Shown in pieces: positions 402 through 7,937 of a stretch of 64,000 nucleotides of DNA. The translations under genes were made by a program, and so were the position numbers. Location of the stretch: sequence record OL362041.1. One strand, given 5' to 3'. Position 1 is the first letter of the stretch; each line of letters starts with the position of its first letter. Below the pieces are notes generated by a model. The model had not been told where the DNA came from and made no database searches. It saw nothing but the letters and a program-made list of their open reading frames with translations. Origin of the DNA: Escherichia phage vB_Eco_OMNI12.

Positions 402-546
402 TTTGTTCTCTCTAGGTTTGGGCCATTCCATGGCGCATGAATTGTCCATTTCTGTATTTACCCATTACCGCACTTGGGCTCGACCTTATTACAGGTTGGC
501 GGGAATCCCTCACAGAATCATGAGGTCCAGGTTATTCCCATGTTAT

Positions 547-963
547 TTAAATGTAAATATTTTTGCCGTAATACTTATACCAGTGTGGCTTCATTAAAAT
601 TTTTTCATCGAGTCGTTGTTGACTCAACTTAATAGCTGATTTGCATGGATTATAATCATTTTTTCATTCTACTGGAATATCGCTGATGTCAGGAACTTCA
701 GTATCTTTTATACTGAACCCGCGTTTTAAGCATTCCGTTATAATGTCCGATTGACGCTTTCGCAAAAATTCTAACTTATCGTAAAAGAAAGTAACATGAC
801 CAGAACCTAAAATAAATTTAGAAGATATTTTAAAATCTTTAACGCGCTTACCGTTTGCCACATGCTTACGAACTATACCAAAAACACGCGGCAATTCACG
901 GTATTCTGCGATTAAATGTTGATCAGCAAGTTCAGATACTAAAGTCAAATTAATACGAGTCAT
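547..963 (-). pseudogene. denV: Endonuclease V (pyrimidine dimer DNA glycosylase) with in-frame TGA at codon 100; 138 codons total
   Basis: ORF track 99 aa [17 protein letters not shown]... matches T4 EndoV N-terminus; same frame continues after TGA (664-666) as KNDYNPCKSAIKLSQQRLDEKILMKPHWYKYYGKNIYI to TAA at 547-549, matching the EndoV C-terminus. Confidence 0.7.
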
Positions 964-1022: not shown

Positions 1023-1553
<531 letters not shown>

Positions 1554-2009
1554 TTAAAAGAGGTTGTTCATTATTCGGTAAAGTGAAGGACCCATCACAT
1601 ATTGCCACTGAGTACGAGGAATAAGAGCAAAAGCATCCATCTCTGGAATCATAACGCCATCTTTATTTTCAAAATAAGACTCACAATAGCAATTTCTGAA
1701 CATCTCATGCTCTACTGGAATCGTATAATAAAATAACTGTAAGTCTTTATTACTAGAATATTTAAATACACCTAGGTCTTCTAGAAGGTCTGGATTATAA
1801 TTGCTAAAACCAGTCTCTTCTAAGCATTCTCTTCGTGCTGCATCTAGTGCGCTTAAATCAGAATTTTCTACGCGGCCCTTTGGAATATCCCAACGATGTG
1901 CCATCATTCCAGGCTTACGAGAACCAGTAACCCGACCCATAAATAAATCTTTATCTTCTGTCATAAAGATAATACCAGCTGATAATGTTTTCATTTTAAT
2001 TTCCTGCAT
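1554..2009 (-). CDS. nudE: Nudix hydrolase
   Basis: Nudix box GRVENSDLSALDAARRECLEETGF; likely true start at the internal Met MKTLSAG (ATG ending 1994) preceded by AGGAAA. Confidence 0.85.
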   Translation of the reverse strand: MQEIKMKTLSAGIIFMTEDKDLFMGRVTGSRKPGMMAHRWDIPKGRVENSDLSALDAARRECLEETGFSNYNPDLLEDLGVFKYSSNKDLQLFYYTIPVEHEMFRNCYCESYFENKDGVMIPEMDAFALIPRTQWQYVMGPSLYRIMNNLF

Positions 2010-2479
2010 TCAGTGATAAAGTTATTTAAATTTTGAGCATATTTCTTTTCATCAAAAATCTTTTGTTGTCTGCGTAACCGCCATGGCATTTCAATGAACA
2101 CACACCATATTCCGGATAATATTGCTGCAGTAAAAATATTAACAAATATAGTACAAAGAGCCCAATCTCCTATTCTGTCCATTGGATTTTTTCCAAAGAA
2201 GTAAAATACGAATGATGACGCAGGAAGACTAATGATATACCACAGAAGCATATTCTTATCCGTAAACCATTCAGCGTTCGTTAACTTAGCACGACCGTTT
2301 TGAATACATACGAACTTATCATCTGTTACAGTAAATGGCTTAGCTGCTTGATATCCCATTCTAAACTCCCTAATTAATCGTTTCTTTGTATCTTCAGAAC
2401 AGCCGCTCCAGTCAACTCTATCAACTGAAATGCCATCGTCCCCATCATCTAAATCATACCAGCGAGTTTTTAAAATCAT
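1991..2479 (-). CDS. Small membrane protein (e.x-region accessory gene), paralog family member 1
   Basis: 162 aa, hydrophobic segments; ATGA start/stop overlap with neighbours. Confidence 0.6.
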   Translation of the reverse strand: MILKTRWYDLDDGDDGISVDRVDWSGCSEDTKKRLIREFRMGYQAAKPFTVTDDKFVCIQNGRAKLTNAEWFTDKNMLLWYIISLPASSFVFYFFGKNPMDRIGDWALCTIFVNIFTAAILSGIWCVFIEMPWRLRRQQKIFDEKKYAQNLNNFITECRKLK

Positions 2480-2838
2480 TTAATTTTCCTACAATCACTC
2501 ACAAACTCTTCCATTGATTCTTTTTCAATATAAGACATGTAGTTATTATATTCTTTTAATTGTATTTTGTAATCCTTTTTTCTTTGCCAATTTATTTTAA
2601 AATTATCATAATGAAAATATAACATGGTACCAAAGAATGAAAATAATGAAATCGCTATAGTATAACAAAGCTCACTCCAAACTTCTGTTATATTTACTGT
2701 GCCGTCGATGTTTAAAATAAGACAGTCAATCATTAATCCAATAAGACTACCTGCAAGAGCTGCAAATGCTGATATGGCAAGAATTAATAGTGCCTCTGGA
2801 AACGAATATTTGACTTTATTTAGTTTTGGCTTTTGCAT
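2476..2838 (-). CDS. Small membrane protein, paralog family member 2
   Basis: 120 aa, two predicted TM helices, charged C-terminal tail. Confidence 0.6.
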   Translation of the reverse strand: MQKPKLNKVKYSFPEALLILAISAFAALAGSLIGLMIDCLILNIDGTVNITEVWSELCYTIAISLFSFFGTMLYFHYDNFKINWQRKKDYKIQLKEYNNYMSYIEKESMEEFVSDCRKIK

Positions 2839-3233
2839 CGTGATTCCTTAACAAATTTCATAATTTCATTAAATTCATACGCAGCAAGTTTAAGCTGATG
2901 TTCCTTTTTAATCTTTTTACACTGAGCTTTCCATTCGCGTACGCGTTTACGATAATGTCTTCCTTGATACCAGTATCCTACCCAATTTACAGGTACTAAT
3001 AAAAATGGAACTACTAATGGAAGAATTAATACTAACAGAAATACTGCGTCTGATTCAATATCAGTAGTAACATCTATAACTATTCCAATAATCATTAGGA
3101 TTATAAATGATACAGCTGTCACAGGACCTACTAATACATCAGTAGGAATTAGCTGGCGCTTTAATTCATACTTCAACGGTTTACTTGGAAGGTATAGTGA
3201 TGGTTTTGACATATTCTCTACATTCCTTAACAA
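2820..3233 (-). CDS. Small membrane protein, paralog family member 3
   Basis: 137 aa, two predicted TM helices, basic C-terminal tail. Confidence 0.6.
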   Translation of the reverse strand: MLRNVENMSKPSLYLPSKPLKYELKRQLIPTDVLVGPVTAVSFIILMIIGIVIDVTTDIESDAVFLLVLILPLVVPFLLVPVNWVGYWYQGRHYRKRVREWKAQCKKIKKEHQLKLAAYEFNEIMKFVKESRCKSQN

Positions 3234-3795
3234 ATTTTTCTAGTAATAAATCGCTTTCAAAATTGGGATTTTCTACGAATTTATCAAAAAGATCATCAAC
3301 AATAGTTAAGATATTCTTTTTACTAAGAATACGTTTATTTTCATGCTTCGTTTCAGAATCAACTATAAGAGTAAAGAAATATTTCTTGCCCTGAAATTTT
3401 ACAGTAGTATCAATATAAAATAAATTTGACTTTTGTAAATTACGTTTAAACCATGCGTCACTTAAACTATAAACACCGAGATAATCAAAATCGTCGTTTA
3501 AATAACAAACCGTCCATTCAGGAGAAATGAAATCAGTAAATTCAACATCAAAATCACACGTCAATGAATGAATTGATTCAATACTGTTAATGAGTATTCC
3601 AGGACGTATTAAAGACTTTTTACCTCTAGAAAATCTTCCGGAAAGGCTTTCATCAGTTTCATATGAAGACCCCCAATAGTAATTACGTCCTTCTGCCATG
3701 CGTTTAAGAGCATTTAGTAATTGGTCTGGAACATCAACCTGTCTTTGGAACTCTTCAAACATTGAATTGAAATCACTTTGCATTTTCATTTTCAT
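3181..3795 (-). CDS. Hypothetical protein
   Basis: 204 aa ORF; start among MKMKM ATGs preceded by GGAG. Confidence 0.6.
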   Translation of the reverse strand: MKMKMQSDFNSMFEEFQRQVDVPDQLLNALKRMAEGRNYYWGSSYETDESLSGRFSRGKKSLIRPGILINSIESIHSLTCDFDVEFTDFISPEWTVCYLNDDFDYLGVYSLSDAWFKRNLQKSNLFYIDTTVKFQGKKYFFTLIVDSETKHENKRILSKKNILTIVDDLFDKFVENPNFESDLLLEKFVKECREYVKTITIPSK

Positions 3796-3811
3796 TCCTA
3801 TTTACTCCAGT

Positions 3812-3833
3812 ATAAGGGGCCGAAGCCCCTTAT
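3812..3833 (-). terminator. Intergenic GC-rich stem-loop (GGGGC-UUCG-GCCCC); terminator or RNA-stability hairpin
   Basis: ataaggggccgaagccccttat immediately after stop of 3836..4429. Confidence 0.45.
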
Positions 3834-3835
3834 CA

Positions 3836-4429
3836 TTATTTCAGAGAATTAATGTATTCCTGAACATCGGCAGAGGTAGTTTCAACCCCAGAAATATTAC
3901 CGTTAAAGGTTTCAACTCGAGCAAGGGTATCTTCAATATCAACCTTAGTCAGTGCTGCAATTTCAACTACATCATCAGCAGTACTAATTCCAAGGGCATT
4001 TGCTGCACGAGTTTCACGGATATATTCCAATTTAACCGCAAGTTCTTGACGAGCATCATCTAACTCAACTACTTTCTTGGCGATTTCAATTCGCATTTCA
4101 GCATAACCGTCAGCCTTAGTAGTCAACTGCTCAGCTGTTCGACGATATAGTAAACCGAGTTTAGCATGCATTGTTACATCTTGGCCTTCGGAAAGAAGTT
4201 TACGAATTTCACGCTCTTTTGATTCGGCCTGTCGATTCTTTTCGATAACAAGTTCACGAATACGTTTTTCTTCGTTAATAGATTTAACAGAAGCAGTTTT
4301 TAGATCTTTAATTTTATCAAGTAGTTTTGCTGCTGCAGCAGTATACTGTTCTTCGACAGATAGATTTTTAGCCATAGCAGAACCAAGTTTAGTGCGAATA
4401 AACTCAACAATTTTCTTCAGTGTGTTCAT
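3836..4429 (-). CDS. Coiled-coil hypothetical protein
   Basis: 197 aa, heptad-rich charged sequence; RBS AAGGAAA upstream of ATG. Confidence 0.6.
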
Positions 4430-4489
4430 AGTATTTCCTTAGGTTAATTGAGATTTAAAATCCGTAGGAGTATAATACTCTATCGTCAA

Positions 4490-4530
4490 ATTATAGGCTC
4501 ATAATATCTCAATCATGAGCCTGCGTAAAC
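4490..4530 (-). promoter_or_regulatory. Early-type promoter candidate (-35 GTTTAC, -10 TATTAT/TATAAT) with internal inverted repeat
   Basis: Minus strand GTTTACGCAGGCTCATGATTGAGATATTATGAGCCTATAAT; inverted repeat AGGCTCAT/ATGAGCCT between the elements. Confidence 0.4.
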
Positions 4531-5023: not shown

Positions 5024-5587
5024 TTATTTACCTAGTTTACTTATTATAGCTTCTGCAGCAGCTTTTAGCTTAGATGCAGTGTTAATACGATTTTTAATTT
5101 CAGTATACGCATCGCCAAGAACATCAAGGCTATCAGAATAAACACTTACACTATTGCGTTCGCTATTTGAAATAGAACCTTTAGTTTTGCGGTCAAAATC
5201 GGTGTACACGTCTTGAAGATCGCGGGCTGCCTTCTTTGCATCATCCAATGCATCAAGAGCTTTATTCAAAGCATTAACGTATTTTTTAGTGTCGAACATA
5301 TTCTTAGAAATTTTAACAGGTGCGCGTTCAGGAGTAGCTAACACAGATTTAGGAACCTGAGCGCCAGATGCCAATTTCTTAGAAATTTTGAAAAATGCTT
5401 TATTGAATTTATTTTCTTGACTCATTGTAAAAGAACTATTATCGATGTTGTACATTTCAATAGCTTTAGCTTTCCACTTAAGAAAATCGCCGCGGTCTTT
5501 TGGGTCCAATTGGAAGAATACTTTAGTAAGATCTGCTTCAGATGGTAATTTTGCTGCTTCGGTTAAAAATTCGGCATAGGTTTTCAT
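5024..5587 (-). CDS. Internal-protein-like capsid-packaged protein (N-terminal CTS-like MKTYAEFLTE)
   Basis: 187 aa; N-terminus fits T4 internal-protein capsid targeting consensus; RBS AAGGA upstream. Confidence 0.6.
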   Translation of the reverse strand: MKTYAEFLTEAAKLPSEADLTKVFFQLDPKDRGDFLKWKAKAIEMYNIDNSSFTMSQENKFNKAFFKISKKLASGAQVPKSVLATPERAPVKISKNMFDTKKYVNALNKALDALDDAKKAARDLQDVYTDFDRKTKGSISNSERNSVSVYSDSLDVLGDAYTEIKNRINTASKLKAAAEAIISKLGK

Positions 5588-6578: not shown

Positions 6579-6655
<77 letters not shown>

Positions 6656-6658
6656 TAA

Positions 6659-7324
6659 TTAAAATTTCATTTTTCGACCTTTAAACCATCCTTCTGGAAT
6701 TGGGTCAGTTTTCTTAATACGTTTAGAAACTTTTTCATCTAATGAATGAATCCACATCATACCAAATTGGGAATTCTTTTCACCTTGTTGGTGTTTATTT
6801 TTGGCGTGAGATTCTTTCATTTTATTAATAGTTTCAAGAGTATGGGTCTTACCCAAGAAAGATTTAATATTTAAAAATTTCTCTCTATACTTAGGATTAT
6901 CCCAAAGCTGTTTAAACCTTTCTGAACCCATTTTACGATATTTTTCTTTAAGGTCTGGGTCGTTCTCAAATCTGGTTTTAAAAGCAGCAGCCCCTTTTAA
7001 GGAAGCTTCTTTCTTTTTATCCAAATATTCTTTAGTGTTTAAATGGTCCCAACCACCTTCACCACCTAATTTCAAATTATAAACATCAGGGCGCTTTAAA
7101 AACTCTTCAGTCACAATATTCTTTTCTGACTCAAACATAGAGGTTTTATCGTCAAAGAACTCTAATATTTCTTTAGAGAAATTTTCTATACCATACTTGT
7201 CTTGGGCTCTTTTTAATAATTTACCAGAACCCATATATCCATCATCTAAATTTTCGGTAGAATGAGCGCCTATATAGATTTTATTATTAATTTTATTTGT
7301 TATTTTATAAGTGTAATGGAACAT
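6659..7324 (-). CDS. segB: GIY-YIG homing endonuclease (SegB-like) inside the tRNA cluster
   Basis: 221 aa; N-terminal YKITNKINNKIYIGAH...GYMGSG GIY-YIG motif; same position as T4 segB. Confidence 0.8.
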   Translation of the reverse strand: MFHYTYKITNKINNKIYIGAHSTENLDDGYMGSGKLLKRAQDKYGIENFSKEILEFFDDKTSMFESEKNIVTEEFLKRPDVYNLKLGGEGGWDHLNTKEYLDKKKEASLKGAAAFKTRFENDPDLKEKYRKMGSERFKQLWDNPKYREKFLNIKSFLGKTHTLETINKMKESHAKNKHQQGEKNSQFGMMWIHSLDEKVSKRIKKTDPIPEGWFKGRKMKF

Positions 7325-7365
7325 AAATATCTCCTATTTCTAAGAGTATTTATGTTCCCAAAATA

Positions 7366-7437
7366 TGGCCCTGGGTGGAATTGAACCACCATCTGGCGAT
7401 TATGAGTCGCTTGCTTGAACCTTCCAGCTACAGGGCC
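7366..7437 (-). tRNA. tRNA-Ile (anticodon CAU, presumably lysidine-modified)
   Basis: Acceptor GGCCCUG, anticodon loop CUCAUAA, T-loop GGUUCAAUUCC. Confidence 0.8.
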
Positions 7438-7443
7438 TTGATA

Positions 7444-7516
7444 TGCTGATTGACGGAATCGAACCGCCGACATCCTCATTACAAGTGAGGTGCTCTACCT
7501 ACTGAGCTAAATCAGC
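7444..7516 (-). tRNA. tRNA-Thr (anticodon UGU)
   Basis: Anticodon arm CCUCA-CUUGUAA-UGAGG, T-loop UUCGAUU. Confidence 0.85.
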
Positions 7517-7523
7517 GAAATTA

Positions 7524-7610
7524 CGGAGGCGATAGGATTTGAACCTATGAGTCACCGGAGCGACTGCCGGTTTTCAAGACCGGTGCATTAAACCACTCTG
7601 CCACGCCTCC
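7524..7610 (-). tRNA. tRNA-Ser (anticodon UGA), long variable arm
   Basis: 87 nt; acceptor GGAGGCG, anticodon loop CUUGAAA. Confidence 0.85.
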
Positions 7611-7612
7611 AG

Positions 7613-7686
7613 TCTCCGCGGCAGGATTTGAACCTGCGACATTCTGCTCCCAAAGCAGACGCTCTACCAAACTGAGCTACACGGAG
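7613..7686 (-). tRNA. tRNA-Pro (anticodon UGG)
   Basis: Anticodon arm UCUGC-UUUGGGA-GCAGA, T-loop GGUUCAAAUCC. Confidence 0.85.
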
Positions 7687-7698
7687 TAAATTAAATTT

Positions 7699-7770
<72 letters not shown>

Positions 7771-7776
7771 AAACTT

Positions 7777-7863
7777 TGGTACGAGAAGTGGGACTCGAAC
7801 CCACAAGGAAATCATTCCGCAGCATTTTAAGTGCTGTGCCTTTACCAATTTGACCATTCTCGC
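7777..7863 (-). tRNA. tRNA-Leu (anticodon UAA), CCA encoded
   Basis: 87 nt, long variable arm; anticodon arm CAGCA-CUUAAAA-UGCUG. Confidence 0.85.
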
Positions 7864-7864
7864 G

Positions 7865-7937
7865 CTGGGAATAAAGGACTCGAACCTTTGCATCTAGCAG
7901 TCAAAGTGCTATGCCTTACCAACTTGGCTAATTCCCA
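7865..7937 (-). tRNA. tRNA-Gln (anticodon UUG)
   Basis: Acceptor UGGGAAU, anticodon loop CUUUGAC; directly abuts tRNA-Leu. Confidence 0.85.

Follow-up and report, generated by a model that had tools for sequence, protein, structure and literature searches.

The shared C-terminal motif of early genes e.5 to e.2 in Escherichia phage vB_Eco_OMNI12 and its occurrence among T4-like phages

Gene identities, junctions and expression of the e.5 to nudE series

A stretch of 64,000 nucleotides (nt) from Escherichia phage vB_Eco_OMNI12 (sequence record OL362041.1), referred to here as the window, carries a series of small overlapping open reading frames (ORFs) that was the subject of this computational analysis. 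An earlier note on this DNA had described three of these ORFs as a tandem family of small membrane proteins, and had proposed that the C-terminal tail they share with a fourth ORF is at least partly forced by the nucleotide sequence. All four ORFs were identified as genes e.2, e.3, e.4 and e.5 of phage T4, encoded on the minus strand, which have been catalogued as anonymous T4 ORFs since the 1990s. The motif that forms their common tail is a new element, found in many early proteins that are otherwise unrelated.

The window was assigned to the genus Tequatrovirus (T4-like); over its positions 1500–4500 the DNA matched phage Paracelsus at 98% identity and T4 at 94%, and 497 phage records spanned at least 80% of this interval. 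Gene identities were established through alignment to the annotated T4 record together with PHROG profiles (E 1e-58 to 1e-110), and the individual genes are listed in Table 1. The T4 orthologues of e.2, e.3, e.4 and e.5 appear as msp7, msp6, msp5 and msp4 in GenBank L13089, an old T4 record in which the stretch from e.5 to nudE is named msp4 to msp8, and they are alike in order, overlaps and lengths. T4-family records label both e.3 and e.4 'predicted membrane protein'. Homologue searches recovered 51 sequences for e.2 (with the precomputed Pfam family PF26896), 46 for e.3 and 102 for e.4 (with the precomputed family PF26873); e.2 orthologues were present in Dhakavirus, Mosigvirus and Kanagawavirus, and the e.5 orthologue group spanned seven lineages.

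The coordinates first given for the three small ORFs hold, with the corrections that all three lie on the minus strand and that the TTG at 3233 assigned as the start of the third ORF (e.4) is replaced by ATG 3212, which yields the 130 amino acids (aa) found in T4 and in all 102 homologues. The start of e.5 is ambiguous between ATG 3795, 3789 and 3783. The e.2 gene is intact in the window, whereas the e.2 of reference T4 is frameshifted and annotated at 102 aa (NC_000866, 3490-3990). Among relatives the intact 162-aa form of e.2 was common, and 122-aa forms (proteins P0045-P0048) start at the position of Met41.

Neighbouring genes overlap by 32 nt at e.5/e.4, by 19 nt at e.4/e.3 and by 4 nt (ATGA) at e.3/e.2, while the e.2/nudE overlap is 4 nt (ATGA) when counted from ATG 1994 and 19 nt when counted from ATG 2009. 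ATG 1994 is preceded by AGGAAA at a distance of 7 nt and corresponds to the 441-nt nudE annotated in phages RB32, PP01 and VEc74; it is likely the actual nudE start, sharing its ATGA with the e.2 stop, in preference to ATG 2009. The latter, T4-style start (MQEIKMKT…) owes its ATG to GAATGC, which encodes E-C in the e.2 tail. The overlap of neighbours reported earlier was thus borne out, but ATGA-type junctions are limited to e.3/e.2 and probably e.2/nudE, that is, one or two of the four. Every start codon is located inside the final part of the gene before it or directly adjoins that gene, and an AGGA-type Shine-Dalgarno (SD) sequence is located in the tail of the upstream gene 5–10 nt before each following start. 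This layout, in which stop and start overlap and the SD belongs to the preceding ORF, is of the coupling type, in agreement with the translational coupling suggested in the earlier note, and is the same as that of coupled overlapping genes in T4 early operons.

A search for terminator-like sites identified only the hairpin at 3812-3833 in this stretch and none from e.5 to nudE, and a promoter scan remained at background level (19 found in comparison to 16.2 expected). In L13089, promoters are annotated only before msp1-3 (e.8, e.7, e.6), and a stem-loop, corresponding to the hairpin at 3812-3833, follows msp3 (e.6). In a T4 time course e.2, e.3, e.4, e.5, e.6 and nudE were all classed as early RNA, and mass spectrometry detected all six proteins, with e.4 and e.5 early, e.2 middle and e.3 late-accumulating (PMC9697503, supplements 4 and 6). 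Such an arrangement would be consistent with a single polycistronic early message from which e.5, e.4, e.3, e.2 and nudE are translated in series.

Table 1. Coordinates of genes, tail motifs and neighbouring features in the window (position 1 is its first nucleotide)
Feature	Position	Strand	Description
nudE (Nudix hydrolase)	1554..1994	-	last of the overlapping series; longest ORF would begin at 2009
e.2	1991..2479	-	162 aa; phrog_2203 E 3.2e-76, covering 1-160 of 166; tail end NNFITECRKLK
e.2 tail motif FITECR	2003..2020	-	followed by AGGAAA, the SD for ATG 1994
e.3	2476..2838	-	120 aa; phrog_2330 E 2.3e-58, covering 1-118 of 122; tail end EEFVSDCRKIK
e.3 tail motif FVSDCR	2488..2505	-	TGT-AGG-AAA-ATT-AAA-TGA holds SD and ATGA start of e.2
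e.4	2820..3212	-	130 aa; phrog_2604 E 5.5e-70, covering 1-130 of 130; C-terminus MKFVKESRCKSQN
e.4 tail motif FVKESR	2838..2855	-	Ser for Cys; AAGGAA (K-E codons) is the SD for e.3 ATG 2838
e.5	3181..3795	-	about 200 aa, soluble; phrog_2607 E 9.2e-110; motif EKFVKECREYVK 11 aa before stop
e.5 tail motif FVKECR	3217..3234	-	AAGGAA 10 nt ahead of e.4 ATG 3212
GC-rich hairpin	3812..3833		between e.6 and e.5; strand not assigned
e.6	3836..4429	-	197 aa, strongly conserved, directly upstream; anchor of the cross-genus comparison
lysozyme e	1023-1517		downstream of e.2, like nudE
ORF MKTYAEFLTEA	5024-5587		capsid-targeting-like N-terminus
ORF MKSYTQFLNEA	~ATG 6186 down to 5713		capsid-targeting-like N-terminus

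Membrane architecture and kinship of e.2, e.3 and e.4

Hydropathy analysis with 19-residue Kyte-Doolittle windows assigned a pair of hydrophobic helices each to e.2 (aa 77-95 and 106-129), e.3 (aa 16-42 and 56-76) and e.4 (aa 28-48 and 57-80), and found no hydrophobic segment in e.5. These results agree with the two helices and charged tail first described for the three ORFs, and the C-terminal tails proved to be basic. The number of Lys and Arg residues in the N-terminus, loop and C-tail was 4/0/10 in e.3, 5/0/15 in e.4 and 13/2/9 in e.2, and from the e.3 and e.4 counts both ends of these two proteins are predicted to be cytoplasmic. By prediction, then, they show the two hydrophobic helices, the short loop free of Lys and Arg and the basic termini of a hairpin, and under the positive-inside rule e.3 and e.4 are predicted small inner-membrane hairpins with both ends in the cytoplasm. 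The same hairpin is predicted for e.2 with an additional N-terminal domain of 76 aa, so that its layout reads as an acidic soluble domain (aa 1-76), the first transmembrane helix (TM1), a short loop, the second helix (TM2) and a basic tail.

The cytoplasmic tail of e.3 is predicted at 44 aa. An AlphaFold2 (AF2) model of e.4, built on a 17-sequence alignment with a mean predicted local distance difference test (pLDDT) score of 81.7, consisted of helices 24-49 and 54-129 with a four-residue turn between them; since the second of these is unbroken in the model, TM2 would extend into a cytoplasmic stalk of approximately 50 residues with the tail at its tip. The least conserved segments of e.3 and e.4 within Tequatrovirus were TM1 and the periplasmic loop, and the most conserved were the N-terminus and the tail. 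Several sharply different variants of TM1 and the loop (TM1 to TM2 span window 2973-3131; for example P0183-P0187) occurred among Tequatrovirus e.4 proteins that are otherwise approximately 85% identical, and their sequences suggest mosaic exchange of that segment. Further along e.4, at aa 92-98 (window 2919-2939) and approximately 26 residues upstream of the tail motif, an internal E-W-K-x-Q-C is kept, in which E93, W94 and C98 were invariant in four lineages.

Whether the three membrane proteins form one tandem family, as initially proposed, was assessed by sequence and profile comparison. Pairwise BLASTP among e.2, e.3 and e.4 gave nothing convincing beyond the tail, the e.2 and e.3 alignment being restricted to the last 14 residues (E 0.007), and PHROGs places the three in separate families. 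Profiles of Tequatrovirus sequences only, which gave shallow alignments with an effective number of sequences (Neff) of 1.2-1.8, yielded hhalign probabilities of 0.6-3.8%. Orthologues were then gathered across genera by tblastn and through loci anchored on e.6, in Mosigvirus RB69, Dhakavirus (dhaeg, JS98, MX01), Kanagawavirus, Jiaodavirus, Karamvirus, Biquartavirus and three IMG/VR lineages. The cross-genus profiles built from them aligned e.3 with e.4 at a probability of 95.7% (E 1e-8), the 59 columns including TM2 and the whole tail, and after removal of the motif the two still aligned at 83% (E 9e-6, 46 columns) in comparison to 0.5% for a reversed-sequence control. One locus, L027, also contained tandem paralogue pairs (7371/7702 and 11796/12181), with adjacent paralogues (phmmer E 1.6e-7), one connected to e.4 and one to e.3. 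On this sequence evidence e.3 and e.4 are probably old paralogues.

The outcome for e.2 was different, as its hhalign matches to e.3 (90%) and e.4 (50%) consisted solely of 12-14 tail columns, and with the tail masked the probabilities fell to 2.4% and 7.7%, no better than reversed controls. Tandem duplication is thus supported for e.3 and e.4, which are similar outside the tail, but not for e.2, and the evidence strongly suggests that e.2 and e.5 are separate families having only the tail in common. Alternatively, all motif genes, e.2 and e.5 included, could descend from a single ancestor by serial tandem duplication, having become unrecognisable save for a doubly constrained tail. The detectable kinship of e.3 and e.4, the paralogue pairs of L027 and the common architecture of the proteins with two transmembrane helices and a tail would all fit such an origin. 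Besides the blank result for tail-masked e.2, however, e.5 and several other carriers of the motif are soluble proteins of 90-260 aa lacking a hydrophobic segment, the carriers remain in 22 unlinked groups after masking, and an e.4 HMMER profile searched against 1.84 billion representative proteins returned seven matches, all e.4 relatives or fragments, with no e.3 or e.2 among them. We consider a single ancestor for all of these genes unlikely.

Distribution of the tail motif and the constraint acting on it

The proteins e.2, e.3, e.4 and e.5 end in the motif Φ(-3)-E-x-F(0)-I/V(+1)-x-x-C(+4)-R(+5), an amphipathic segment followed by basic residues in which the spacing -3, 0, +1, +4 matches one helix face. 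The pattern F[IVL]x[ED][CSIV][RK] occurred five times in the six frames of the 64-kb window and four of these were the C-termini of e.2-e.5, while in the whole T4 genome F[IVL]xxC[RK] was located near a real gene end solely in e.2, e.3 and e.5. Both scans indicated that the tail common to the four ORFs, as it had been noticed at the outset, is real and far from chance. When nine genus-level lineages were surveyed for [FW][IVL]xxC[RK] within 25 residues of the stop, the motif turned up in 30 of the 131 ORFs located from e.6 onward, in comparison to none of 108 upstream (Fisher p = 3e-9), and the consensus of 37 distinct tails was [LIF]-[END]-x-F-I-[KED]-x-C-R-[KEGR]. Its carriers included proteins with two transmembrane helices as well as soluble proteins of 90-260 aa, and with the motif masked they fell into 22 groups whose mutual similarity was undetectable. 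Motif carriers occur only within the e.6-to-e region of T4-like phages. When IMG/VR was scanned for TTTATTAARGAATGYMG, the 80 matches were mostly random, with only four in frame near a stop, three of which came from T4-like contigs. No description of the motif was found in the annotations or papers searched, and the relationship of e.3 to e.4 was likewise absent from the annotations.

Within each of the four families the motif also ranked highest, or close to it, in conservation. The motif was the most conserved 9-residue stretch in e.3 and e.5 and joint highest in e.4; three of the five invariant columns among e.5 orthologues from the seven lineages were F188, C192 and R193, and in e.2 the residues F154, I155, C158 and R159 made up four of 18 invariant columns. 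In the e.4 family the motif Cys is replaced by S, I, V or M.

The shared tail could nevertheless be merely a by-product of the nucleic acid, with similar peptides forced by the need to fit the SD, spacer and start codon of each following gene into the final codons of the one before it. Every tail does contain AGGAAA or AAGGAA 5-10 nt before the next ATG, the codons for K-E (in e.5 and e.4) and R-K (in e.3 and e.2) double as SD codons, and the e.3/e.2 and e.2/nudE junctions have nearly the same 18 nt. The register of the SD is not fixed, however, since in e.5 and e.4 it falls on motif codons +2/+3 (K-E), whereas e.3 and e.2 have it on +5/+6 (R-K), with F, I/V and C-R held fixed throughout; therefore F, I/V and C never serve as SD codons, yet they are conserved. 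Codon choice turned over extensively among genera, with all six Arg codons (AGA, AGG, CGT, CGA, CGC, CGG), both TGT and TGC for Cys, both TTT and TTC for Phe, and ATT, ATC and ATA for Ile in use, and JS98 e.2 has a GC-rich TGCCGT where an AU-rich spacer would be expected. Moreover, the motif is kept in genes whose tails carry no adjacent start, including a Kanagawavirus e.5-like gene and the gene for a 117-aa Karamvirus protein, where the next start follows 10-15 codons later; in RB43, where it precedes the stop by 25 codons; and in Jiaodavirus, where it stands before gene e ahead of a 29-nt spacer with its own ribosome-binding site. The four junction RNAs showed no significant or SD-sequestering structure (folding z -0.9 to +1.35), and in e.5 the motif is the segment that has been maintained most strictly.

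It is due to this shifting SD register, the codon turnover, the motif without an adjacent start, the conservation within families and the unstructured junction RNAs that the constraint can be interpreted as acting mainly on the peptide, and we give little credence to a purely nucleic-acid origin. The proposal that the tail is forced by the DNA is accordingly correct only in small part, as the K-E and R-K positions are partly dictated by the SD, while F, I/V and C are left unexplained by it. The genes also depart here from ordinary translational coupling, which yields no peptide motif conserved across genera through codon turnover.

As a candidate explanation of the tail, mimicry of a gp21-protease site (I-x-E) or of a capsid-targeting sequence was considered and rejected, because conservation of the Glu is limited to three genera and some of the carriers are membrane proteins. 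A resemblance between the tail (xF[IV]xEC) and capsid-targeting-like N-termini of the form EF[IL]xEA (window 5024-5587) may be coincidence.

A second tandem family, of small soluble proteins that end in W(V/I/L)SSSxxC or a close variant followed by the stop, was observed downstream of e.3 in RB69 (L002 3731-4526), Dhakavirus (L004 3691-4936), Kanagawavirus (L030 7710-8545) and Karamvirus (L032 7302-7828). Its junctions are of the type TGCTAAGGAA…ATG, and it is absent from the window.

Gene loss at the tails and proposed role of the motif

Comparison with relatives identified several losses within the series. In RB32, PP01 and VEc74, e.2 is missing and the body of e.3 is fused in frame to an e.2-type end (…GATTG[T/C]AGGAAATTAAAATGAAAACA), the crossovers lying at two different points inside the core GA(T/A)TG(T/C)AGGAAA. 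MX01 lacks e.4 and has an e.5-like gene joined straight to an e.3-like gene, and in UFV05/06 a deletion of e.3 accompanies an e.4::e.2 chimera that formed through a 6-nt microhomology inside TM1. The UFV06 chimera (L008 1501-1821; P0051), with ATCATT as the microhomology, encodes 106 aa and keeps two transmembrane helices and the e.2 tail. These losses of e.2, e.3 and e.4, together with the frameshifted e.2 of reference T4, indicate that e.2-e.5 are dispensable and in flux.

Such rearrangements raise the alternative that the tail and following start are chiefly a recombination cassette that spreads among genes and encodes a functionless peptide, as a coding analogue of the promoter-stem-loop (PeSL) cassettes described in hyperplastic regions of T4-type phages (Arbiol et al. 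2010, PMC2839356; Comeau et al. 2014, PMC4122927). The precise in-frame loss of e.2 by crossovers within the shared core, the e.4-less junction of MX01 and the location in a hyperplastic zone whose gene content is different in every genus are what a cassette would produce, and PeSL-mediated shuffling is documented in T4-type phages (PMC2839356). The two kinds of element are alike in being short conserved gene-boundary sequences of a plastic region, between copies of which recombination removes or swaps genes. They differ in that a PeSL is intergenic and made up of a promoter and a terminator, whereas the tail element is coding (the last 6-9 codons with the next SD and start), possesses no promoter, terminator or stable hairpin, and is conserved as peptide and not as DNA; no unit of the PeSL kind, in which a sigma-70-like early promoter in an intergenic space precedes a terminator stem-loop, was found from e.5 to nudE. 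Furthermore, copies within one genome share just 10-12 or so identical nt, which amounts to microhomology, the UFV06 chimera arose at an unrelated 6-nt microhomology and shows that deletions of this kind need no cassette, and the amino acids are kept while the codons drift, the opposite of what a DNA element predicts. A cassette with a functionless peptide is accordingly rather improbable. The tail sequence is one seam of gene loss, acting as microhomology, and not a propagated DNA element.

The explanation that we favour, with moderate confidence, is that T4 early genes e.5-e.2, with e.3 and e.4 as paralogues, encode proteins whose shared tail is a docking helix to a common partner or to each other. 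The products of e.2, e.3 and e.4 would be accessory early proteins anchored in the inner membrane, and the tail may form a short amphipathic docking or assembly helix at the tip of the cytoplasmic stalk, tying the membrane proteins and soluble e.5 to one common partner or to one another. Variability in TM1 and the periplasmic loop would then suggest an adaptive, host-facing end in the membrane, consistent with a possible role in exclusion or anti-defence. Since the SD and start of the following gene are embedded in the tail codons, these 10-12 nt may also act as microhomology for in-frame gene loss or gain.

Small early membrane proteins of T4 include Imm, an inner-membrane protein of superinfection immunity, as well as holin T and antiholin RI, and e.2-e.4 are like them in being small, early, predicted to lie in the membrane and non-essential in appearance. 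The superinfection-exclusion or lysis-timing roles suggested for such proteins found no support in family searches: in Pfam-A at E<=1, e.2, e.3 and e.4 matched no family of immunity, holin or antiholin proteins, and no similarity to Imm, Sp, holin T, RI or RIII was found in Pfam-A, PHROGs, NCBIfam and PADLOC, nor with Foldseek, where matches were orthologues only. We know of no counterpart among T4 small membrane proteins to the long cytoplasmic helix and the shared C-terminal motif. The C-terminal clamp-binding tails of T4 gp43, gp33 and gp55, all of which bind gp45, offer another likeness, as there too otherwise unrelated proteins terminate in a short peptide of hydrophobic or amphipathic character, which implies one hub; they differ in having another sequence motif, and in the e region several carriers are membrane proteins and the hub is hypothetical. 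In the literature searched for the function of e.2 to e.5, these genes figured only in omics tables. Among NCBI records, the name 'sulfurtransferase' on e.3 and e.4 homologues and 'DNA primase' on one e.3 homologue were supported by none of the models searched and look like propagated annotation errors; e.3/e.4 homologues so named include P0053, P0071, P0105 and P0116.

Several points weigh against the favoured explanation. The K-E and R-K residues of the tail are in part dictated by the SD; the e.4 family is without the motif Cys, so that this residue is not indispensable; and the partner that we infer for the tail is hypothetical, as is its docking. All comparison loci were anchored on e.6, and co-occurrence of the motif with e.6 is thus not independent. 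The hhalign profiles linking e.3 to e.4 were thin (Neff approximately 2.5) and the proteins are compositionally biased, which the reversed control covers only partly. The extra variability of TM1 and loop was modest (0.73-0.85 in comparison to 0.94-0.99) and could reflect relaxed constraint in place of positive selection. Sequence searches of Pfam-A, NCBIfam, PADLOC and PDB gave sub-threshold noise only, Foldseek searches of the e.4 model against BFVD and PDB returned only orthologues, and the single-sequence AF2 model of e.5 (pLDDT 38) was unusable.

A broader and more doubtful possibility, which we put forward tentatively, is that the motif is a portable C-terminal address tag by which a shifting assortment of early effectors, membrane hairpins as well as soluble proteins, dock on one conserved hub, either the neighbouring e.6 protein or a host factor, and that e.6-to-e constitutes an integron-like array. 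If this were so, tag DNA that carries the next ribosome-binding site and start would allow in-frame gene swaps, with the effectors interchangeable and the connector shared. One motif thus labels approximately 20 early proteins that are otherwise unrelated, in several T4-like genera, and provides a handle on phage dark matter; a single peptide could serve as bait for the partner they would have in common, and many genes could be tested with the same few point mutations. A sequence used twice, as a peptide motif and as a translation start, can also serve as a seam for the in-frame loss or gain of accessory genes.

Elsewhere in the window, denV (544-963, minus strand) had an in-frame stop after codon 99 such that the ORF ends at 664, after which the frame resumes the normal C-terminus (KNDYNPCKSAIKLSQQRLDEKILMKPHWYKYYGKNIYI*); this represents either a nonsense-interrupted gene or a sequencing error. 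The window has no ipII and ipIII, whose place in T4 is between e and denV (here 963-1023). Instead, two ORFs between the e.6/e.7-like genes and tRNA-Arg (Table 1) have N-termini like the capsid-targeting sequences of internal proteins. A T4-type cluster of eight tRNAs occupies window 6579-7937, and a GIY-YIG segB-like homing endonuclease ORF (6659-7324) is located between tRNA-Arg and the remaining tRNAs, as in T4.

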